From the NCBI GenBank assembly GCA_963663865.1, contig OY760686.1, positions 2,208,001-2,272,000 on the forward strand: a stretch of 64,000 bases of DNA. The letters are read 5' to 3'. The notes under the pieces are model-generated. The model was not told where the DNA came from. It made no database searches and saw nothing but the letters and a program-made list of their open reading frames with translations. Shown here in pieces: positions 28,563-39,702 of this stretch; within the stretch, counting starts at the first letter, position 1, and each line of letters begins with the position of its first letter. The translations under genes and the position numbers were made by a program. The stretch comes from Spirochaetota bacterium. GTDB taxonomy: Bacteria > Spirochaetota > UBA4802 > UBA5550.

Positions 28563-28631
28563 GTGCTTGATTTTCTCACGAAGAAGCGCACTGTCAACTC
28601 TATTTTGGCTGGTTCTGATTGAGGAAGAGCC

Positions 28632-28667
28632 GCCCAAACGCCCACCGGGTAGTGAAGCGCATAAGCT
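28632..28667 (-). repeat. Degenerate attC remnant after vapC
   Basis: GCCCAAACG-N10-AGTGAAGCGCATAAGCT aligns, with the same spacing, to GCCCGAACG-N10-AGTGAAGCGCATATGCT inside the intact site (35302-35337). Confidence 0.65.
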
Positions 28668-28689
28668 ATAACAGCGGCTGTTGCGTTTT

Positions 28690-29091
28690 TTATTCTTTTA
28701 CCCAGTTCTCAAGCTTCAGACCTTCTACTCTTTCAAATTCTTTTATATTGTTCGTAACAAGAATTAATTTTTTTGACTTTGCCTGTCCCGCAATCAATAG
28801 ATCCTTTGGTCCAATTAGCTTGCCTTTTGTTTCTAAATCTGTTTTAATTATTCCGAATTCGACAGCATCAGTATCATCAAACGGCAAAATAATAAAGATT
28901 GATAAAAACTCAATCAAAGCTATTTTGTTCTTTTCTGGAAATTTACTATTCGCAACTCCATATTCCAGTTCAGCAATTGTTATTGATGAAACATAAATGT
29001 CTTTCTTTGATTTTGTTTTTAATGTCTTTAATACATCAACCGGCTTCTTCTTAATGATATTAATACAGATATTCGTATCCAGCAAATACAT
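28690..29091 (-). CDS. vapC: VapC PIN-domain toxin
   Basis: YLLDTNICI, ITIAELEYG, IGPKDLLIAGQA, LVTNNIKEFERV. Confidence 0.95.
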   Translation of the reverse strand: MYLLDTNICINIIKKKPVDVLKTLKTKSKKDIYVSSITIAELEYGVANSKFPEKNKIALIEFLSIFIILPFDDTDAVEFGIIKTDLETKGKLIGPKDLLIAGQAKSKKLILVTNNIKEFERVEGLKLENWVKE

Positions 29092-29303
29092 CAGAAATTT
29101 TCTCTTTTTTGATTTTCACCTTAATCACGGCTTTCTTTCATGAAATCATCAGTAAAATTATTCAGCCCATGAAGAAATACTTACCAGGATTTATTATGAG
29201 GAAGTAGAATCACGGCATCTCCAACTTTTTGGATAAGCACATCGTTGCCGGAAAATTGAAATTCTTTAGGTAAGCGTACTGCCTGCCCTCGGTTTTTAAT
29301 CAT
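29091..29303 (-). pseudogene. vapB: VapB/VagC (AbrB-type) antitoxin pseudogene
   Basis: MIKNRGQAVRLPKEFQFSGNDVLIQKVGDAVILLPHNKSW*VFLHGLNNFTDDFMKESRD*GENQKRENF; in-frame TAA at 29181-83 and 29121-23; TGATG overlap with vapC. Confidence 0.88.
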
Positions 29304-29636
29304 TTAATTCCTTATTAATCTTCTTAAAATTATATCTTCGAAATTTCTTCTAGAGTCAATCATTGAAAGAATATATACTTTATGTTCTTCGATTCTATAG
29401 ATTATTCGCCACGGAGTTATAATCAACTCCCGATAGTTGCTAATATTATGAAAATCAAGTTCAGGAATAATCCTTCCTCGTTCAGGATAATTTTCTAATT
29501 TAACCGTTTGCTTTTTAATTTTTTCAAATATTTTTTCAGCTATATTCAGGCTGTCGAATGAAATATATTCAATTATTTCAATAAGATCATCTTGTGCCAA
29601 CCTGGTCCAGAATACAGTATATTTTTTTGATGTCAT
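29304..29636 (-). CDS. RelE/ParE family toxin
   Basis: VFWTRLAQDDLIEIIEYI...YPERGRIIPEL...YRELI..PWRIIYRI...DSRR. Confidence 0.92.
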   Translation of the reverse strand: MTSKKYTVFWTRLAQDDLIEIIEYISFDSLNIAEKIFEKIKKQTVKLENYPERGRIIPELDFHNISNYRELIITPWRIIYRIEEHKVYILSMIDSRRNFEDIILRRLIRN

Positions 29637-29640
29637 AAAC

Positions 29641-29919
29641 TTATCTTTTTTTTAGAATTTTATCTTCAACAGAAGAAAAAAATGTGCTCTGCTCAATAAA
29701 TTTTCCATTTTTAACATCTTTTTCTCCCATCGAAATTAATTTAAAAATTCTTATCGCATTTTGCATCGAATCATAGCTCTCGGTATCCATTAATACAGCC
29801 TTTGCTTCACCATTTTGAGTAATTATTATTGGTCGATGGGTTTCGTTTACTTGATCCAGCATGTTTGCAGCATTTGCTTTTACAAAAGAAATTGGGCGTA
29901 TATCTTGTTTAGTATTCAT
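29641..29919 (-). CDS. Phd/YefM family antitoxin
   Basis: DIRPISFVKANAA...RPIIITQNGEAKAVLMD; directly upstream of the RelE/ParE toxin. Confidence 0.93.
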   Translation of the reverse strand: MNTKQDIRPISFVKANAANMLDQVNETHRPIIITQNGEAKAVLMDTESYDSMQNAIRIFKLISMGEKDVKNGKFIEQSTFFSSVEDKILKKR

Positions 29920-30072
29920 TATTTTATCCTTTAATGCATTTCATTTGATCTAAATATAGTACCAAATTAAGTTTACAGGTCAAGAATAATTTTCTAATAC
30001 GGTTGGAGCAACTTTCTTACTACATTTCGTTTAAATCATTGCGAATATCTCATATTTACCTCCTAATGGAGG

Positions 30073-30140
30073 CGACAACTTTCCTGATTATGAGGATATG
30101 CCACGTTTTCACCGTAGCGCAGCAAAGGTGAAAACATGGC
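30073..30140 (-). repeat. Partial attC-like site (long hairpin plus R'-like GTTGTCG)
   Basis: Minus strand GCCATGTTTTCACC...GGTGAAAACGTGGC hairpin, then CATAATCAGGAAA-GTTGTCG; compare CATAAGCAAAAC-GTTGTCT at the end of the intact site. Confidence 0.5.
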
Positions 30141-30144
30141 TAAG

Positions 30145-31506
30145 TCATTTCTTTCCCTCATATTTTGACCAAAAGCTGTATTTGCGGCCATGGGCCTGCA
30201 TAATTTGATCTTTAAAGGCAATATTATTACTATGATTTTCCCAATCATCAACATATATGGACATTTTGTCCAACTTCTTTAGATACCGGACTCCATGGGG
30301 ATAGGCTTTGGTATAACCACGCTCCAGAATAGATACCAGCAAACTCCGGTAAATAAGGCTGGACGCAAGATGTCGCTTTTCTGATTCCATAATTTCTGCC
30401 AATGGAATAAGGCTTCCATAAAAATTACCGTCGAATTGCTCAGCTCGCTTTATGAGATATTCTTCGGCTTCATTGATCTTTCCTGTTTCGATCAGAAACC
30501 CTGCATCCGATAAACAAAGGCTTTCGTTTTTTAAAATTTGTGCCACCTCAACAGCAATGACTTCATCCCTTTTATCATGTCCAATCACATCCAGAAGAGC
30601 CTGCAGGGTGTAGGTTGAGTGGTAAGATTTGAATTTATGAAAAAGAAGTTCTGTCAGCTTTTCTGTGTCGCCCTGTTTTTCATAAATTTCCTGAAGAAGC
30701 TTGTCCCTTTCATATGCCTGAAATGTTTCTCCCTTCGGGATTTTTTTGAGCCATAAGTATGCTGTTTCAACATCTTCGTTTTCCAGATATACCTGGGCTA
30801 TATCAATGAAAGCCGCAGTGGAAAGCTTTCCCCATGAAGCAATTCGAGTTTTTTCAAACAGTCTGGCATCACCAATCTGTCTGGCCAGAGATTCAATAAG
30901 CATCAGATGATGTCTCTTATTATAATCCGCGCTCTCTTTGTCAGCCCGTAACTGCAGTACTGTAATCATTCTCCTGACAGCATCTTCGGGCAGACATTCT
31001 CCGGCGCAGGCAATCAAAGTATCCCGGATACCGTAATCATCCTTTTGATTTACTTTAAGGATAATTTCGGCGACTTTTTCCTTATCAGCACAACGAGAAG
31101 CATAGTCAACAAACAGCTCCCTGGCATCATAGCGGAAGACATCACCAATATTTCCATTGGAATCATCGCACATTTCAAAGATAACATTGTCAGCCTCGTA
31201 AAAAGAAGCTACCATTTCCATGCCGGTTAAGGGGTCATCCATACCTGCCTTCAAATCCTTCAGAAGCATTTCCAGTTCCCGGGCAAATCCATCTGCACCA
31301 TGCCAATCGATAAAGCGTCTGGAACGCTTAAGGCCGGAGAGTTTCTTTCAGAACCGCTGAACATTTTCCTTCGGCGGTGCAATCAGTCGTTCTATCAAAT
31401 CATCAGCTTCATCAGAACTTAACGAAAGGTCCAGAAGCGCGTCCGCAAGAACTTCCGGACCTTGATCAATCAATTTCTCCCTGCGGTCATTCCCTGAGTT
31501 TTCCAT
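30145..31506 (-). pseudogene. DUF6880-like helical protein interrupted by an in-frame TGA
   Basis: Frame runs from ATG 31506 (MENSGNDRREKLIDQGPEVLADALL...) through TGA 31348-50 into the 374-aa ORF; CDDSNGNIGDVF and Y.HGVRYLKKL...HGRKYSFW motifs. Confidence 0.7.
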
Positions 31507-31514
31507 AAACAGCA

Positions 31515-32045
31515 TTATTCTTCTTTTACATAATCATAAAATTCATAAACAAGATTCCCGATTTCATCATGAAATCCCCAGCCTATTCCTTCCGTTTCAT
31601 CTATAAAACCGAAACACCGGTCTTTGTATTTCTCCAGCATATCGTTTTTACTTATATGTACAAGGAACCGTTCCAATGCTTTTTCAATATTTTCGTAAAA
31701 ACGTTCACCAATATCGCCGTATTCATTGGTGAAATCTATCCCGCATTTGACATGCGTAAATAGAAGTTCCGCCAAATAACCGGGATCGTTTGAGATTTTT
31801 ATAAACTTTGAAAGAACGTCTCTGATATTGGCATATCTTAGTTTTCCAAATCCTTTTTCAGGAAAAAACTCATCAATGATCTGCTTTCTGTATTTCCGGA
31901 AAACTTCTTCAGGATTTGAAAAACTATTTTTTTCATCAAGAATCTCTTTTGCAAGAGGCACTTTTCTGTATAAATCAATGATTATTTCCATCAATTCATT
32001 TTTTTTCATGGAGCCTAATTCTTTCTTTAATTCTCTGATTCCCAT
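31515..32045 (-). CDS. DUF6155-like hypothetical protein
   Basis: ELKKEL..M.K.EL...IIDLY, EFFP.KG.GKLR, FTNEYGDIGERFY, GIGWGFHD. Confidence 0.7.
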   Translation of the reverse strand: MGIRELKKELGSMKKNELMEIIIDLYRKVPLAKEILDEKNSFSNPEEVFRKYRKQIIDEFFPEKGFGKLRYANIRDVLSKFIKISNDPGYLAELLFTHVKCGIDFTNEYGDIGERFYENIEKALERFLVHISKNDMLEKYKDRCFGFIDETEGIGWGFHDEIGNLVYEFYDYVKEE

Positions 32046-32285
32046 TATTAGTTTCCTGTCCCGTTTTTTCCGTCTTTCTTTTCAAGCAATTTCTTTTAGA
32101 TTTCCAGTTCCTTTAAGTCCTCTTCATCGGCCTTTTTTGCTTCGTTATTTTTCCTCTTTCTATCGAATTAATCGTATCAGACTTCATCAATATCTGGGAC
32201 CACTTCCACTTGAAGTGAACCTACCCCGAAAAAGTGGACACGAAGTTAAGCGAATTTAACGATAATAAACTTAACGGAGAAACCC

Positions 32286-32588
32286 ATGACTAACAGAAGA
32301 ACGTATGATCGTCAATTCAAAATTGATGCAGTAAAATTACTGAAAGAGAGCGGCAAAACAGCTTCTGCGGTCGCCGATAATCTGGGGATTAAATCTGATC
32401 TCTTGTCACGCTGGAAAAAGGAATTTGCCAATGAAACCAAAAAAGTTTTTCCAGGGAAAGGAAATCCGCGAGATGAAGAAATAACACGTTTGAAAAAAGA
32501 GAACGCAGATCTTCGTATGGAGCGTGATATATTAAAAAAAGCAATGGCCATCTTTTCACAACCCGAAAGGAGAAATTCGAATTCATGA
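32286..32588 (+). CDS. IS3 OrfA (HTH)
   Basis: RRTYDRQFKIDAV...VADNLGI...LSRWKK...LRMERDILKKA; A7G slippery run at 32534-32541. Confidence 0.92.
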   Translation: MTNRRTYDRQFKIDAVKLLKESGKTASAVADNLGIKSDLLSRWKKEFANETKKVFPGKGNPRDEEITRLKKENADLRMERDILKKAMAIFSQPERRNSNS

Positions 32589-33412
32589 AAAACAATGAAT
32601 CGATTTATCCGGTGAAGAAGATGGCTGAAACATTTAGAATACCCAGAAGTCAATATTACAAATGGCTGAATTCAAAACCTTGCTCTCGTGAGCTTCGAGA
32701 TCAGGAATTACTTGTTATAATCAAAAAGAGTCATGAAGAAAGCAGAGAAACATACGGCAGCCCCAGGGTCTTTAAAGATATTAAGAAGAAGGGAATCAAA
32801 ACCTCAAAGAAACGAGTAGCTCGACTCATGCAAAGGAACGATCTTAAAGGTGCACAAAAACGCAAATTTAAGGTTACTACCAATTCAGATCATGAATATC
32901 CAGTGGCACCAAACCTTCTCAATAGGCAGTTTGATGTGCAGCAACCCAACACCTATTGGGTAAGCGATATCACCTATATATGGACGATGGAAGGATGGCT
33001 GTATCTATCTGTTATAATTGACCTGTTCTCTCGAATGATTGTCGGATGGGCAATGGAGTCTCATATGCGGGCAGAGTTGGTAATTGATTCATTAAATATG
33101 GCTGTCACTCATCGCAATCCTGATGATGGATTAATATTCCATTCTGATCGGGGAACTCAATATGCCTGTGATGATTTTCGAACAGCACTTAAAGGATACG
33201 AGATGATTCAAAGCATGAGCCGGAAAGGTAACTGCTGGGACAATGCATGTGCTGAAAGCTTTTTTGCAACATTAAAGACTGAAGAAGTTTATCGTAGAAA
33301 ATATAAAACCAGAGAGGAAGCAAGGTCTTACATATTTGAATATATAGCTGTTTTTTATAACAGAAAAAGACAGCATTATTTTCTTGACTGTTTAAATCCT
33401 GTGGAATATTAA
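32585..33412 (+). CDS. IS3 OrfB (DDE integrase core)
   Basis: YGSPR, WVSDITY, HSDRGTQY, SMSRKGNCWDNACAESFF; lies in the -1 frame relative to OrfA. Confidence 0.93.
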   Translation: MKNNESIYPVKKMAETFRIPRSQYYKWLNSKPCSRELRDQELLVIIKKSHEESRETYGSPRVFKDIKKKGIKTSKKRVARLMQRNDLKGAQKRKFKVTTNSDHEYPVAPNLLNRQFDVQQPNTYWVSDITYIWTMEGWLYLSVIIDLFSRMIVGWAMESHMRAELVIDSLNMAVTHRNPDDGLIFHSDRGTQYACDDFRTALKGYEMIQSMSRKGNCWDNACAESFFATLKTEEVYRRKYKTREEARSYIFEYIAVFYNRKRQHYFLDCLNPVEY

Positions 33413-33475
33413 ATAAATATGCTCAAACTTAAAAATGTTGTTTAACTATCTGTCCTATAAATCGGGGGAGCTTCA

Positions 33476-33526
33476 ATCCCAGGCCGAAAGCACAGCATAT
33501 AAATCCTGTTAGGTGTAGTGTTTGAA
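33476..33526 (-). repeat. Truncated attC (R'' ACCTAAC) cut by IS3 and separated from its gene by IS256
   Basis: Minus strand TTCAAACACTACACCTAAC fits RYYYAAC and is an inverted match (15/19) to the cassette start GTTGTCTGTAATGTTTGAA at 35255-35237. Confidence 0.65.
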
Positions 33527-33527
33527 T

Positions 33528-34851
33528 GAGAGTGTAAAAAGATTTGTGTAAATAGCTATATTATTACTCAATAGATAAGGAGAAAAAATATGGCTATGGA
33601 CAAAGATGCAATAATTAATGAATTGCTGGAAGATGTGGATTTTAAAGCACTGACACCTGAACAGATTACCGGGAAAGACGGCCTTATTCAGCAATTAACC
33701 AAGAGGATTATCGAAACAGCGATGAATGCTGAGATGACAGAACATCTTGGCTACGACAAAAATGAAAGATCAGCAGGTAAAAGCACCAACGCTCGTAATG
33801 GTCGAAGTAGCAAGAAGGTGCTAACAAACAATGGAGAAGTCCTAATTGATATTCCCCGAGATCGTAATGCTGAATTCGAACCCAGAATAGTAAAGAAGCA
33901 TCAAAAACGATTTGAGCTCTTTGACGAGAAAATCATATCGATGTACGGGTTGGGGATGACAACCAGAGATATTCAGGGCCATCTTGAAGATATCTATGGA
34001 GTAGAGGTTTCGCCTGACCTGATCAGCACCGTTACCAATGAGATAATAAAAGATGTTCTGGAATGGCAATCCCGCCCACTTGATCCTGTGTACCCTATAG
34101 TGTATTTTGACGCTATCGTGGTCAAAGGCCGAACTGACGGCAAAGTATCAAATAAATCAGTGTATACGGCTATTGGGGTCAATATGCAGGGCAAAAAAGA
34201 AGTTCTAGGCTTATGGATTGGCGATTCAGAAGGAGCTAAATTTTGGCTTCAGGTTGTAAATGAACTTAAAAATCGAGGAATCGAAGATGTCTTCATCGCT
34301 TGCATGGATGGACTGAAAGGGTTTCCAGATGCGGTTAATGCCGTATTCCCAGAGACCAGGATTCAGCTGTGCATAGTTCATATGATACGCAATTCAATAA
34401 AATATGTATCATGGAAAGAACGAAAGGCGATATGTACCGATCTGAAAAGCATATATTCTGCCCCTTCCGAAAAGGCTGGTTTGGCTTCGCTTGATGAATT
34501 TTCTAAAAAGTGGGATGGTAAATATCCGATGATTTCAAAGTCATGGCGAGCCAATTGGGAAAACCTCAACGAATTTTTCGCTTATCCGGCAGATATTCGA
34601 AAAGCAATTTATACTACCAACGCAATTGAATCCTTGAATTCAAGCCTACGGAAAGTAACCCAGAAAAGAGCGGCATTTCCTACAGATGATTCAATCTTTA
34701 AGGTGCTGTATTTGGCATTGACGAAAGCCGAGAAAAAATGGACTATGCCAATCAGAGATTGGGGTGCTGCTATCAACCAGTTCGCAGTATATTTTGGAGA
34801 CAGAGTACCATTATAATCAAAGGCTATTTACACAAAAGATCTGATACTCTC
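33528..34851 (+). mobile_element. IS256-family insertion sequence with 8-bp target duplication
   Basis: IRs GAGAGTGTAAAAAGATTTGTGTAAATAGC / revcomp GAGAGTATCAGATCTTTTGTGTAAATAGC; DR GTTTGAAT at 33520-27 and 34852-59. Confidence 0.96.
33590..34816 (+). CDS. IS256 (Mutator) transposase
   Basis: PRDR..FEP, YFDA, CMDGLKG, QLCIVHMIRN, IYTTNAIESLN. Confidence 0.97.
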   Translation: MAMDKDAIINELLEDVDFKALTPEQITGKDGLIQQLTKRIIETAMNAEMTEHLGYDKNERSAGKSTNARNGRSSKKVLTNNGEVLIDIPRDRNAEFEPRIVKKHQKRFELFDEKIISMYGLGMTTRDIQGHLEDIYGVEVSPDLISTVTNEIIKDVLEWQSRPLDPVYPIVYFDAIVVKGRTDGKVSNKSVYTAIGVNMQGKKEVLGLWIGDSEGAKFWLQVVNELKNRGIEDVFIACMDGLKGFPDAVNAVFPETRIQLCIVHMIRNSIKYVSWKERKAICTDLKSIYSAPSEKAGLASLDEFSKKWDGKYPMISKSWRANWENLNEFFAYPADIRKAIYTTNAIESLNSSLRKVTQKRAAFPTDDSIFKVLYLALTKAEKKWTMPIRDWGAAINQFAVYFGDRVPL

Positions 34852-34873
34852 GTTTGAATAGCTGATGGCCATG

Positions 34874-35215
34874 TTAAACATCTTCATCTACTATTTCTGT
34901 TCCAACCAAATCTTCAATTACAGTATGACATTCAACATCAAACCATTCCATAAAAAGCTTATAGGTTCTGGGCTTAGGCCATGCGCTTTCGTCTTGGTAC
35001 CAATCGTTTAATTCATTTTCAAAAAAAATATCATAATTTTTCTTTAGCATTTGATCCAGATTTTCGGCAGAATTCTCATCAATCAAATATACCGTTCTTT
35101 CTTCGTTTGTCATTTCTTCTAAAGTAACAATACTATTATCAGATGAGTCGGTACTATTAATCCAATCGATCATTGGTTGTTTATATTTTAATAATAAAGC
35201 TGCACGATTAATCAT
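34874..35215 (-). CDS. Acidic hypothetical cassette protein
   Basis: GGGAGG RBS; INR.A...KQP..DW...VYL...FENEL.DW.QDE..WP..R....F.EWF pattern; bounded by attC-like sites. Confidence 0.8.
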   Translation of the reverse strand: MINRAALLLKYKQPMIDWINSTDSSDNSIVTLEEMTNEERTVYLIDENSAENLDQMLKKNYDIFFENELNDWYQDESAWPKPRTYKLFMEWFDVECHTVIEDLVGTEIVDEDV

Positions 35216-35248
35216 AAACCCTCCCTAAAATAATGCTTCAAACATTAC

Positions 35249-35346
35249 AGACAACGTTTTGCTTATGTGACGTCGCGCGGCCTTTTGCGCGATGTGGCGT
35301 AGCCCGAACGAACGACAGCGAGTGAAGCGCATATGCTTTGTTGTCT
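35249..35346 (-). repeat. attC-like recombination site (98 bp)
   Basis: Minus strand R'' AGACAAC ... R' GTTGTCT exactly complementary; inner GCATATG/CATAAGC boxes; internal hairpin ACATCGCGC-AAAAGGCC-GCGCGACGT; lies between two co-oriented genes. R boxes deviate from GTTRRRY. Confidence 0.75.
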
Positions 35347-35363
35347 GCCGTCAAAACCGCATC

Positions 35364-35639
35364 TTACAGAATTTTTATTGATAAATTTTTTCCTAATGCT
35401 TTTGTTACTTTTAATAATGTCGAAAGCTTGATGTCTTCTGAATGATTTTCAATTCTCGAAATTGCACTCTTTGTTGTTTTAATTTTTTTTGCTAATTCTT
35501 CTTGAGTTAAACCGCTTTTTTCTCTTTCTTGTCTTAGGATTAAACCTATCTTGAATTCTTCGAAACCTTCATCGTATCTTTGTGCGAACTCAGGGTCTTT
35601 CGCTTTTCTTTTGGTTATGTATTTTTTCAGATCACTCAT
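35364..35639 (-). CDS. XRE-HTH antitoxin (HigA-like)
   Basis: IGLILRQEREKSGLTQEELAKKIKTTKSAISRIEN; ATGA overlap with the upstream toxin. Confidence 0.92.
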   Translation of the reverse strand: MSDLKKYITKRKAKDPEFAQRYDEGFEEFKIGLILRQEREKSGLTQEELAKKIKTTKSAISRIENHSEDIKLSTLLKVTKALGKNLSIKIL

Positions 35640-35986
35640 GATTTCCTCCAGTTTAAATAATCATTTCTATAATCTTCTGCTCGTTTAATTTCTGCAGTAG
35701 ATATCTTTTGTGTTTTTTTAATAAGTCCATGTTTAAGAATTATTATAAAACCTTTTTCGAAGAAACAAAATATTCGGTAAATGTTTGAACCTTGTTGAAT
35801 TCGACATTCACAAATGTCCGTATTCACGAGCTTCTTAAAATAAGTTGATTGAAGCATCCCTTAATTTTCTAATAATTCAAGCATCCATGTAATTTTTTGA
35901 ACAACCTTTCCGGGAAGCGAATCAAGAAATTCTTCTACTGGACAGCTTCCATCTTTTGTTTTATAGAATATGATATTTCTTTTCAT
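35636..35986 (-). pseudogene. RelE/HigB (Gp49-like) toxin with an in-frame TAA
   Basis: MKRNIIFYKTKDGSCPVEEFLDSL...ELLEN*GMLQSTYFKKL...ECRI...YRIFCF...HG.IKKTQK; stop at 35861-63. Confidence 0.85.
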
Positions 35987-35992
35987 ACATTC

Positions 35993-36021
35993 ATGTTAGC
36001 ATGCAGGTGAACATTTGTCAA
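35993..36021 (-). promoter_or_regulatory. TA promoter giving a leaderless transcript
   Basis: TTGACA - 17 bp - TAACAT, 6 nt before ATG 35986; ATGTT..AACAT inverted repeat overlaps the spacer and -10. Confidence 0.65.
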
Positions 36022-36055
36022 TCATTTTCTATGAAAAAATAATGCGGTTCTTATG

Positions 36056-36180
36056 GCAGACGACTAAAATTATCTGCATTGCGTAATTTTATGCATAATC
36101 ACATATTAAAGTGAAGCAGATTTTCCCAAGTAACTAAAAAATTTTGGCATTATGCGCATCTTCTCCGTTTTAACTAAAAC
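36056..36180 (-). other. attI-like site
   Basis: Minus strand GCAGATAA-TTTTAG-TCGTCTGC simple site at the first cassette boundary, plus two upstream direct repeats TTTTAGTTA (36131, 36171). Confidence 0.45.
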
Positions 36181-36549
36181 AAACTGTTTTCAATTGTTTT
36201 TATAATAGAGGTCACTGACATGAAAAACACTGGCCTTAAAAAGATGCTGTTAAGATACGCCGCCGGCAAAAATCCTAAATTCATTTCAAATAATCAATCA
36301 GAGTTTCCTCACTCATTTTCTTATATAAAGGAAAGTGGTTAAAAGAAATCTACCGCCAATGTTCCGGCCTTCGGCTTCCCGACTCATCTTGTCTTCCGCG
36401 GGGCGCTCGTAACTCGCCTGCCTTACGGCAGACTCAAACAGACGCAGCGCCTTCTCCCGCGGCCGACTGCGAGGAGTCCGACAAACAGGATGTTTTAGTG
36501 CCGATGGCCGCCAGGACGGCGAAAATGCCATCGGCTGCCTGGAACATAA

Positions 36550-36846
36550 TGGCGGAATTAAGAAACTGCAGGCACACTACTTCAACAACTCATCCAGCGC
36601 GATTTGCATGAATGCAAATCGCTCGGGCGCCGTTTCATCAGGATGATGATAACGGCGCTGCAACAGTCGAGTAACTGCAAAAGCCAAGCCCTTCCGGCGC
36701 CAAAAAAATATTGGTCGAAAAGCAGGATGCTTAAGTGTCGACGGCCGACAGGAGGTCGAAAAAGCCGACCACTTTCGCCCGGACGAAAGTGACGAAGAAA
36801 AAGGTCTCACGCTCCCAGTGTGAAATAGACGGCAGGCTCCTGTCAA
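36550..36846 (+). repeat. Structured non-coding repeat, copy 1
   Basis: Collinear with 38239-38488; 64-bp identical core 36638-36701; several hairpins. Confidence 0.9.
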
Positions 36847-37059
36847 CACCGATTAGATTTTGCCTCTGTCACTGTCACAAGCCTTGAAAGTCTTCCTCGT
36901 ATATCATATGTGTATTCGGTCTCTGTATTGTGAGCATGACTATACCAGTTTTCTTATGGCACCGGCTGCTCACAACTTACAATCAACACGCATCATGTGG
37001 AGCCTTAGCAGAATAATACCGGCTTATAGGGAAGGGCTCGGAGATAAAGCTCTGAAGTG

Positions 37060-37350
37060 CTAACTCATCTTCTTAATGTTTATTTGGTATCCAAGGACTG
37101 CTGCAATACCACTTAATGTTTTCAGCGTGACATTCGAGCTTTTACCTGTACGGATATTCTGTATCACGGCAGGTGACACCCCGGCTTTTTCTGCAAGCTT
37201 TCTCACTGAAATATGGTTCTCTTCCATCGCCTCAAGAAGAAATTCATTAAGAAGAAATTCATTGTATCCTTTATAAAACCGCTCTTTCCTTTTCAGGTCT
37301 TTCAATATCCGGTCAAAAGTAGTTTGTTGTTTTTTTGCTTTTTCATTCAT
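37060..37350 (-). CDS. XRE-HTH antitoxin
   Basis: AMEENHISVRKLAEKAGVSPAVIQNIRTG...TLKTL..IA..LGY; start overlaps the toxin stop. Confidence 0.88.
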   Translation of the reverse strand: MNEKAKKQQTTFDRILKDLKRKERFYKGYNEFLLNEFLLEAMEENHISVRKLAEKAGVSPAVIQNIRTGKSSNVTLKTLSGIAAVLGYQINIKKMS

Positions 37351-37723
37351 AATAGGTACCATCCTTCAATCGTCTTTCGTAGTCATCACGGCAGGAGAGT
37401 GCTTTTTCTTTTTCATTCCTGGGCAGTTTATCGGTCTTCTTTCTGAATGCGTTGGTTACGATAATCTTTCTTTCCTTCACAAAGAAACACAGAAAACGGT
37501 CAGTTTGAGGCTTAAAGGCGAAGATATCGTCCCCCTCGTATCTGAATTGTGTCTTGTTATTGATTTTACCAAAATCTCCCATACGCTTAAAAAGATAAAA
37601 AAGCCTATCCTGCTGGGTTTCACTTAATTCTTCAAAATATTCTAAGGCCTGGCAATATCCACAGCCTGAACAATACCATTCAATAATAAACTGTTCCCCG
37701 CAATAAGCTATGTATTCTTTCAC
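37343..37723 (-). CDS. RelE/HigB (Gp49-like) toxin
   Basis: F.YEGDDIFAFKP...RFLCFF...IIVTNAFRKKTDKLP.NEK; GTG start. Confidence 0.88.
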   Translation of the reverse strand: MKEYIAYCGEQFIIEWYCSGCGYCQALEYFEELSETQQDRLFYLFKRMGDFGKINNKTQFRYEGDDIFAFKPQTDRFLCFFVKERKIIVTNAFRKKTDKLPRNEKEKALSCRDDYERRLKDGTYYE

Positions 37724-37733
37724 CTATCCACCA

Positions 37734-37762
37734 AGTGTACCATTATTTTAGCACATCGTCAA
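37734..37762 (-). promoter_or_regulatory. TA promoter (near-leaderless)
   Basis: TTGACG - 17 bp - TACACT, 10 nt before the GTG. Confidence 0.6.
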
Positions 37763-38191
37763 ATCTTTTTTCTTTTACTATTTTATAAAACTTCTTCCCA
37801 AAACACCTCCGAACTTCAGCAATAAAATGTATAATACCGCATTCGCTCTTCTCATGCGACCCTCGCTCGCTTCGCACCCTCGGCGAAGATAATTTATCAT
37901 ATCCTAAGCGCCTACATGGCCAGGATTCTACTGTGTCAACGAGCAGGGCCTCGTTAATGTGGAATTTTTTTCAGCGCTCGTTCGAAACCGTGGGAATAAT
38001 ACGTTTTTCTTTTCAACTACACTAAAATGACAGAGCATGAACGATAAAAAAACAAGACTGAAATATGATAGAAGCAAAGAGATTGCAAACTAACAGTTTT
38101 ATGCAGAAGTAAATTGGCAGCATGCCTGGAGGTAGAGACGCTAATAAGGGAGACGCTGCATCATCTTGTCAGATGTGGAGGCTTGTTTTCT

Positions 38192-38219
38192 CTCGCAAAG
38201 TCCGCAAAGTACGCAAAGT
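38192..38219 (+). repeat. 9-nt tandem repeat (TCGCAAAGT CCGCAAAGT ACGCAAAGT)
   Basis: Three copies of CGCAAAGT with period 9, seen directly. Confidence 0.8.
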
Positions 38220-38238
38220 CCCTGATCTGTAACTTCAT

Positions 38239-38488
38239 TGGCGGAATTAAGAGACTGCAGGCACCCTGTTTCAACAACTAAACCAGTGCGATTTTCACGG
38301 ATGAAAATCGCCCAGCGCCGACGTTCAGGATGATGATAACGGCGCTGCAACAGTCGAGTAACTGCAAAAGCCAAGCCCTTCCGGCGCCTGAAGAACGGCT
38401 TTTTCCCGCCGCTTTTTGGCCGGTCAAAAAGCGGCAAAAGAGGTACCACGCTTTCAGCGTGAAAAATGACAGACAGGATCCCTGCCAA
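38239..38488 (+). repeat. Structured non-coding repeat, copy 2
   Basis: Direct repeat of 36550-36846 with compensatory stem changes; identical core 38325-38388. Confidence 0.9.
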
Positions 38489-38640
38489 AAATGCGTTTCG
38501 CACAACACAGCAGAATAAATGAGAGCGGCATCACAAATATATCTTAACATTTTTCTGCTCCTGAACCCTAATCTTACTGGTTAAAAAAACTTCTGTGCTT
38601 ATTATTTGCTTTACAAACCAAACAGATAATGGAGGGCAAT

Positions 38641-39702
38641 ATGAAAGCCCACGAAAAAGCGATATACGATAAATCAGACAGTGTTAACTGTCATCACGAA
38701 ACCGGTCTTAAGGAGATCTACCTTGCGGGAGGCTGCTTCTGGGGCATTCAGGAATACTTCTCAAGAATGCCCGGAGTCGTTTACACCCAGGTGGGATATG
38801 CCAACGGGAAAACGTCAAATCCATCCTACTACGATGTATGCAGCGGAGACACAGAACACGCCGAAGCTGTTCATCTGCGCTACAATCCGGAGATTATCAC
38901 ACTCCGCGAGATTCTCATTGAGTTTTTCTCTGTTGTTGACCCCACATCTCTGAACCGTCAGGGCAACGACTCGGGAACACAGTACAGAAGCGGAATATAC
39001 TTCAGCGATCCTGAGGATGAGCCGACAATTTCATCGGTTATCTCAGAGATAAGCAAAATGCACACAAAACCGGTAATTACGGAATCAGAAAAGCTCAAAT
39101 GCTTCTTTGTCGCTGAGGACTACCACCAGGACTATCTCAAAAAAAATCCCGGGGGATACTGCCATGTCCCGCTGAAGCGCTCCGACCGGATAAGCGGCAA
39201 AAAAGATACTGCTCCTGTCATAGATCCGGGGCTCTATCCGGTGCCTGATTCAGTAGAGCTCTCTTCAAGGCTCAACGACATTCAGTTGGCAGTCACACAG
39301 CACTCAGCGACAGAAACACCGTTCACAGGCAAATACAATGAGCACTTTGCACCCGGCATCTACGTTGACATTGTCACCGGAGAACCGCTTTTCAGCTCCA
39401 CTGACAAATTTGAATCCGCCTGCGGATGGCCTGCCTTCAGCAGGCCAATTTCCCCTGAGGTCATCAGTGAAAAGATTGACACATCACACGGCATGAGAAG
39501 AACTGAAATCCGAAGCCGCTCCGGAGGGTCACACCTTGGGCACGTCTTTGAAGACGGGCCGCCCGACAGGGGCGGGCTCAGATACTGCGTCAACTCGGCA
39601 GCATTGGATTTTATCCCCCTGAATGAGATGGAGTCAAGAGGATACGGCAGTCTGAAAGAGCATGTCTTGACGGCCTTCAGTAAGAACGGCCGTATGAAAT
39701 AA
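38641..39702 (+). CDS. msrAB: Bifunctional peptide-methionine sulfoxide reductase MsrA/MsrB
   Basis: [20 protein letters not shown] (MsrA); ATE.PF, GWPAF, HLGHVF.DGP, RYCVNS (MsrB). Confidence 0.96.

Follow-up and report, generated by a model that had tools for sequence, protein, structure and literature searches.

What is the structured, GGA-rich element that stands twice, in the same orientation, on either side of a putative toxin-antitoxin (TA) pair in the 64,000-nucleotide stretch of spirochaete DNA analysed here (the window)? The initial annotation of this locus had offered two answers, namely a CsrA-titrating noncoding RNA family, or a non-autonomous mobile repeat that brackets the gene pair as a mobilisable unit. 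All 15 motifs quoted there are present at the given positions, and the longest sequence shared by the two copies is indeed an identical 64-bp core (36638-36701 and 38325-38388, plus strand). The RelE-HTH pair between them was correctly read as well: a Gp49/RelE-like putative toxin gene (PF05973; 37343..37723) is followed by an HTH gene for the putative antitoxin (PF13443, PF01381; 37060..37362), both on the minus strand. The two direct copies stand too, whereas their proposed boundaries do not, as both copies are longer, starting at ~36310 for copy 1 and at ~38127 for copy 2; together they make up both of the long direct-repeat families of the window.

Read along the plus strand, which is the GGA strand, copy 1 (36310..36845) consists of an A/T hairpin J, a long head hairpin, a first unit U1, core hairpins A and B, a second unit U2, and hairpins D, E and F. 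The head module (36353..36555, plus strand) is a long imperfect hairpin with the closing pair CCGCCAATGTTCC / GGAACATAATGGCGG, and hosts U1. Four of the GGA hairpins listed in the initial annotation turn out to be the halves of two copies of one twin-GGA unit: U1 (36479..36535, plus strand; 57 nt), with a 5’ CGAC, two AGGA loops and a 3’ CGGC, which scores 78.5 bits on a model that has U1 in its training set, and U2 (36716..36769, plus strand), which at 54 nt is 3 nt short of its sisters and has hairpin D as its host, being inserted at the foot of it. At 36599..36658 (plus strand) lie the core hairpins A and B, B with a CAGGATG loop and A with a TGAA loop, which is a decayed GGA loop, GGA being found at that position in 20 of 22 aligned copies. 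The 3’ hairpins D, E and F (36770..36843, plus strand) are terminator-like on the minus strand. Copy 2 (38127..38520, plus strand) carries a module K, core A, a hybrid B, and hairpins C, E and F, the last three at 38409..38486 (plus strand). Its core A (CACGGATG loop) and hybrid B span 38288..38345 (plus strand); B retains the first hairpin of a third unit type, and likely arose through a deletion between two TCAGGATGA words, as comparison with the loci at genome positions 2311591 and 1976473 suggests. Covariation is real in the core and in the 57-nt unit, but ACTTTCG..CGAAAGT versus CCGCTTTTTG..CAAAAAGCGG is no example of it, these being two alternative modules that recur throughout the family and not one stem. 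The region 36360-36860 folds better than its shuffles on both strands (z of -4.58 for plus and -3.47 for minus), and folding energy favours neither strand, whether computed as RNA or as DNA.

The two copies belong to a larger family. Searching the 3.16-Mb genome with them by BLAST yielded 44 merged matches, which after dropping matches below 60 bits and merging neighbours left 34 regions in 20 islands; as an intron divides one copy into two of these regions, the family numbers about 33 loci. At each locus, hairpin modules follow one another in a 5’-to-3’ order that varies rather little; chimeric junctions are common, and all modules share one polarity. With origin and terminus placed at the GC-skew extremes (350 kb and 1,942 kb), 32 of 34 regions (31 of ~33 loci) and 18 of 20 islands have their GGA strand running against the leading-strand sense, and none of the 20 islands is of mixed polarity. 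Over 22 copies of core A and B, 97.7% of cells are paired and 5 of 22 pairs are compensatory; loop A reads AYGGAY in 15 of the 22 and loop B reads CAGGATG. GTAG-footed hairpins are present among the mosaic modules, in two modules that lie outside the 57-nt unit. A DDE-derived, TIR-bounded MITE was considered and rejected, given the lack of target-site duplication at filled and empty sites and a TIR-like pair, TGTTGACAC, that frames only 1 of 34 loci.

Within these mosaics, the 57-nt unit stands out by its constancy. Behind its initial CGAC comes a hairpin of 4 bp whose loop is AGGA; a WAGT-like linker then leads to a longer hairpin of 13 bp, which again has an AGGA loop and carries an A-rich bulge on its 3’ side. 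Across 31 spirochaete copies, 94.2% of its cells are paired and 13 of 17 pairs are compensatory, and none of 500 shuffles matched the paired share or the covariation score. From spirochaetes to Bacillaceae it measures 57-60 nt and ends in CGAC..CGRC, and the same length, ends, linker and bulge recur in gammaproteobacteria. A covariance model of the unit finds 18 copies in this genome. Within the order, 92 of 122 genomes carry 1-43 copies each, and phylum-wide 21 of 150 genomes have a match; with no more than 37-46 candidates scored per genome, all of these numbers are minimum values. The exact pattern occurs at 126 loci or more in a species collection, mostly Bacillaceae, plus named Spirochaetia records, which agree with a spirochaete origin of this DNA. 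A viral collection gave 2 matches, and carriage by phages was rejected as an explanation. In five Bacillaceae loci (L045, L060, L057, L121, L125) further small inserts have in turn broken up the unit’s second GGA loop.

Do these loops make the mosaics a dispersed family of CsrA-titrating RNAs, with the GGA strand transcribed as a sponge and mobility being secondary? We consider this rather unlikely, even though the loops themselves would suit it. GGA is retained over the genomic copies, in 41 of 44 core loops and in 58 of 62 unit loops, the latter figure being partly circular as units were chosen via a loop pattern, and over 15.4 kb there are 162 A(N)GGA loops on the GGA strand against 63 on the opposite one. 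The loops fit the E. coli consensus RUACARGGAUGU, a GGA hexaloop is reported to be bound by Leptospira CsrA (PMC8668096), and the reverse complement of Bacillaceae-1, as well as TwoAYGGAY, were put forward as CsrA binders by Gardner and Eldai (PMC4333381); CsrA binding of the unit is predicted. The candidate partner is present, csrA adjoining fliW in this genome, beside a flagellin-like gene that we read as flgL, but a csrA next to fliW is described as the type controlled by a protein antagonist. Nor does csrA track the unit, being present in all 20 genomes without a unit match and in 20 of 21 with one. Where strand is concerned, the polarity common to all modules and the ratio of G-U to A-C of 17:3 on the GGA strand of the core (in copies that are related) would speak for transcription of that strand, whereas the same ratio in the unit is 9:8, showing no bias. 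Furthermore, in 21 of 34 regions the next long downstream ORF is convergent, so that read-through would yield the non-GGA strand; no promoter-like site was seen on the plus strand in the 250 nt upstream of either copy, and GGA lies on the template strand in most of the insertions into IS91-like genes described below. The Rfam scan of the window gave no sRNA match, with nothing at gathering score and, by E-value, chance-level matches only. We take the invariant loops to mark a protein-binding site; the protein is predicted to be CsrA if the GGA strand is transcribed, but could be the mobilising enzyme.

Evidence for the other answer, a mobile repeat, comes from the dispersed copies and from the filled and empty sites of the 57-nt unit, which bear out this part of the initial annotation. 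U1 fills a site that three other loci have in the empty state, and the site of U2 is filled six times and empty three times genome-wide. For three mosaic sites of this genome, filled and empty counts are 6/3, 3/20 and 7/3, the last empty count having been made by eye from six pattern matches. Outside the mosaics, a lone unit at genome 178834-178890 breaks an RHS core gene whose paralogue at 181755 is intact; the single contig joint at this site matches that paralogue rather than an empty allele, and four contig sets gave no exact empty allele for a unique site. In relatives, the unit mostly sits within REP-like hairpins of a CCCTC type, sometimes as head-to-tail tandems. No target duplication was seen at the filled and empty sites and no common target word or tetranucleotide was noticed by eye, nor do the sites, again judged by eye, fit the IS608 guide rule. 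In a single-contig relative (G011), the 17 listed units comprise 9 on the plus and 8 on the minus strand, with opposite neighbours, and therefore strand polarity seems to be a property of the mosaics and not of the unit. No description of the unit as an insertion element was found in the literature, in a search that covered mostly open journals. We read the unit as a precise insert that leaves no target duplication.

Could the hairpins instead have been written locally by template switching during replication, and homogenised by gene conversion, without any dedicated enzyme? The frequent chimeric junctions, the preference for insertion into hairpin-rich or rolling-circle DNA, and the lack of a unit-linked transposase in this genome would all agree with such a process. 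It would not, however, account for inserts that are unrelated to their flanks, that land precisely within coding DNA, and that keep a constant length, ends, linker and bulge in spirochaetes, Bacillaceae and gammaproteobacteria alike, and we regard it as very improbable.

Which enzyme, then, may move the unit? Neither a Y1 nor a Y2 transposase was matched in this genome. In relatives, the unit recurs within one clade of IS91-like genes (Y2_Tnp + Zn_Tnp_IS91), where one and the same motif is filled in four loci (L025, L028, L026, L207) and empty in two (L034, L029); the filled motif belongs to genomes G014 (two copies), G015 and G026, the empty alleles to G014 and G010. The unit stands at five or more further sites in IS91-like genes. 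Matches to the unit model were found in 4 of 19 Y2 loci at E ≤ 0.1 (three of them at E < 0.01) and in 8 of 56 loci of the IS91-like clade, 20 of the 56 having been chosen for being split, and two of the eight matches being already known and one lying just beyond the gene. For comparison, Y1 loci gave 2 of 40, and IS110 and IS4/5-type loci 0 of 38. Among 122 genomes, which through kinship are not independent, the unit is present in 44 of 51 with the IS91-like clade versus 48 of 71 without it, with a median of 8 versus 2 copies; nine genomes carry 15 units or more without the clade. In one unit-carrying IS91-like copy (L008), positions 1647-1937 hold a 96-aa ORF that looks GIY-YIG nuclease-like by eye.

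The unit ends show no resemblance to the ends of the IS91-like elements, and derivation of the unit from such ends was rejected for this lack of likeness. Since the ends differ, and since further REP-like hairpins are also inserted in IS91-like copies, the IS91-like gene may be a mere sink. Either insertion is carried out by an enzyme close to the gene that encodes it, or the single-stranded DNA of rolling-circle replication makes a good target, and both alternatives would point to a single-strand route. There is a precedent in REP sequences, which are reported to insert within their own tnpA_REP genes, for one RAYT subclass (10.1101/279083). Other candidates were tried and rejected. Y1/RAYT genes occur in 14 of 21 unit-positive versus 15 of 20 unit-negative genomes, and in none here. 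DUF559 genes occur in 15 of 21 unit-positive versus 5 of 20 negative genomes, and track the host REP-like hairpin and kinship; apart from two such genes, no recurrent neighbour was found among 184 flanking ORFs.

We thus arrive at a joint reading, to which we assign a probability of roughly 60%: the unit would be non-autonomous, moved as folded single-stranded DNA by an HUH enzyme acting in trans, and the mosaics would grow and trap genes by recombination. Observed are the dispersed copies and their polarity, the order of modules, covariation, a constant unit length with constant ends, alleles with and without the unit, and enrichment in IS91-like genes and inside REP-like hairpins. The passage through single strands, the HUH class of the mover and the capture of genes are what we infer from them. 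Copies 1 and 2 would then be members of a chromosome-wide mosaic hairpin family of one polarity, carrying the inserted twin-GGA unit, and the best candidate for the mover would be the IS91-like Y2 transposase of the order, for which this genome gave no match. This TA pair and other accessory genes would likely have been trapped through recombination between copies of the same orientation.

The question remains whether the TA pair is bracketed as a mobilisable unit, as had been suggested. Part of this stands. Close pairs of the same orientation number 13 (14 with the intron) against 1.6 expected, a number reached in none of 10000 random draws, and they flank low-GC cargo, GC being 0.40 or lower in 10 of 14 intervals compared with 11% of genome windows. 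Among the 39 of 46 ORFs scanned, this cargo comprises four TA-like pairs (counting DUF4160/DUF2442, which we take to be one), an HTH gene, IS elements, RHS pieces, a C10 peptidase and an ORF6N gene. The other part does not stand, as the unit lies near toxin homologues in only 2 of 24 homologous loci of relatives, none of which match the mosaics by BLAST. Where contigs over 35400-39700 join one copy to the other, the joints correspond to paralogous loci, which leaves an excised allele indistinguishable from such paralogues.

Such pairs and arrays around low-GC cargo, with a TA-like pair in 4 of 13 intervals and an HTH gene in a fifth, could also be explained if each mosaic were an attC-like site, and the intervals, this TA pair included, cassettes moved by a tyrosine recombinase. 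A non-Xer integrase gene does exist at genome 2283242, and among the homologous TA loci there is one (L476) that is flanked by units to either side. The sites proper to such a system, however, belong to a separate family (window 35247-35345 and kin), the junctions between mosaic copies fall at many places and not at one crossover, 22 of the 24 homologous TA loci are without the unit, and the TA interval assembles as one contig at flank-like depth in two sequencing runs. We therefore consider cassette movement improbable. Under the joint reading of a mobile unit within recombining mosaics, same-orientation pairs are likely recombination-prone landing places, and not a dedicated TA transposon.

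Several further features of the neighbourhood and the family deserve description in their own right. A TA-rich array occupies window 28600-35900 on the minus strand, with PIN, ParE/Phd, Gp49-HTH, DUF6155 and DUF6880 genes, broken by IS3 and IS256-type elements. The attC-like site at 35247-35345 lies in this array and has kin at genome 2286697, 1702368 and 640216. A 363-aa non-Xer tyrosine recombinase gene (G000:C1:2283242-2283730, minus strand; L003) lies 3 kb from an attC-like site, and is a candidate integrase of the array. Upstream of copy 1, window 36090-36156 forms an imperfect palindrome with GCATAAT..ATTATGC ends, degenerate attC-/dif-like by resemblance only. The homologous locus L476 (232-2043, genome G223) has three units around the TA genes, on both sides and in mixed orientation. 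Furthermore, a group II intron at G000:C1 ~1038038-1039990 (minus strand; L445) sits, in GGA sense, at the tip of a core hairpin A, and is the sole reverse-transcriptase match of this genome. Its closest relative (G181, L482; 70% identity) has CAGG before it and a GGA hairpin after it; other relatives are not in GGA loops, or are cut by contig ends.

How do these elements relate to known systems? The reverse complement of Bacillaceae-1 (RF01690) agrees with the unit in its two hairpins with GGA loops, in the linker and in the 3’ bulge, and the unit shows the two RUCCU-type loops (GGA on the other strand) and the internal bulge in the longer hairpin by which that family is recognised. Among 4 Bacillaceae loci run through Rfam, 3 pass the Bacillaceae-1 cut-off on the opposite strand and 1 falls just below; 10 other loci gave no match. 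Loci with 58.5, 56.7 and 47.6 bits on RF01690 (cut-off 35) reach 37.7, 43.8 and 30.0 bits on the spirochaete-trained model, on which the four Bacillaceae loci score 30-45 bits. That model matches 27 of 27 non-window loci, all chosen by a shared 25-letter pattern, and some (L076, L134) not of Bacillaceae type. In the other direction, RF01690 stays below its 35-bit gathering cut-off on this genome (best 16.4 bits) and below cut-off on six spirochaete loci. Since the profile match is one-way, the unit and Bacillaceae-1 share an architecture, which is not membership. Bacillaceae-1 is annotated as an sRNA gene, on the strand opposite to GGA, and the available portions of its source accounts do not describe it as an insertion element (PMC2864571, PMC4333381); judged by eye, the Bacillaceae loci of the unit also lie within other repeats. 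It is a speculative and rather unlikely extension that Bacillaceae-1 and the spirochaete units form one cross-phylum class of 57-nt mobile micro-elements and are not sRNA genes, spread on single-stranded DNA by IS91-type Y2 HUH transposases and planting paired CsrA sites in repeats and mobile genes. If true, this would link selfish hairpin DNA with CsrA titration and explain how TwoAYGGAY-like motifs multiply. The reading of the unit proposed above would also recast an Rfam sRNA family (Bacillaceae-1) as an insertion element of the opposite strand, and, as far as the searched literature shows, provide spirochaetes with a first candidate CsrA-binding repeat family.

TwoAYGGAY (RF01731) appears similar in its two AYGGAY-type loops, and shares a large copy-number variation and an association with REP arrays. 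A 2026 preprint reports these copy-number swings and the REP association, leaving open whether CsrA sponging, mobility or both are behind them, and how mobility and regulation are linked (10.64898/2026.09.22.753630), and in SBW25 the orientation of tandem REP arrays linked to TwoAYGGAY is reported to follow the chromosome arm (PMC3116915). With its defined ends, empty alleles, and a candidate enzyme that has intact copies in many relatives, the unit makes this question of sponge or mobility testable. The core A and B pair is TwoAYGGAY-like by resemblance only, without an RF01731 match; none was found in this genome at E ≤ 10, and control genomes also stayed below cut-off, so that the search had no positive control. 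TwoAYGGAY differs in that the pairs here are tandem and not mostly divergent, and the 57-nt unit is without a basal stem. From CsrB/CsrC/RsmX-Y-Z sponges, with which the mosaics share many A(N)GGA hairpin loops on one strand, they differ by the lack of an Rfam match in the window, by a CsrA of the FliW-linked type, and by consisting of dozens of dispersed, nested and partly broken copies. The RYYYAAC..GTTRRRY core that directly follows the cassette gene in integron attC sites is absent, only the head module having degenerate core-like ends. Like REP, BIME and REPIN sequences, the mosaics are intergenic hairpin mosaics, some of them GTAG-footed (PMC3733652, 10.1101/279083), and as reported for those, they are targets of other elements and insert into an HUH gene. 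In contrast to REP/REPIN with RAYT, however, there is no Y1_Tnp here and the unit flanks only 2 of 40 Y1 loci; the unit starts with CGAC and has no GTAG/GTGG foot or GTAG guide, and mosaic modules follow each other in direct order, whereas REPINs are inverted doublets. Taken together, the structure is real, covarying and multi-copy, and is a variant of twin-GGA motifs and BIME-like mosaics.
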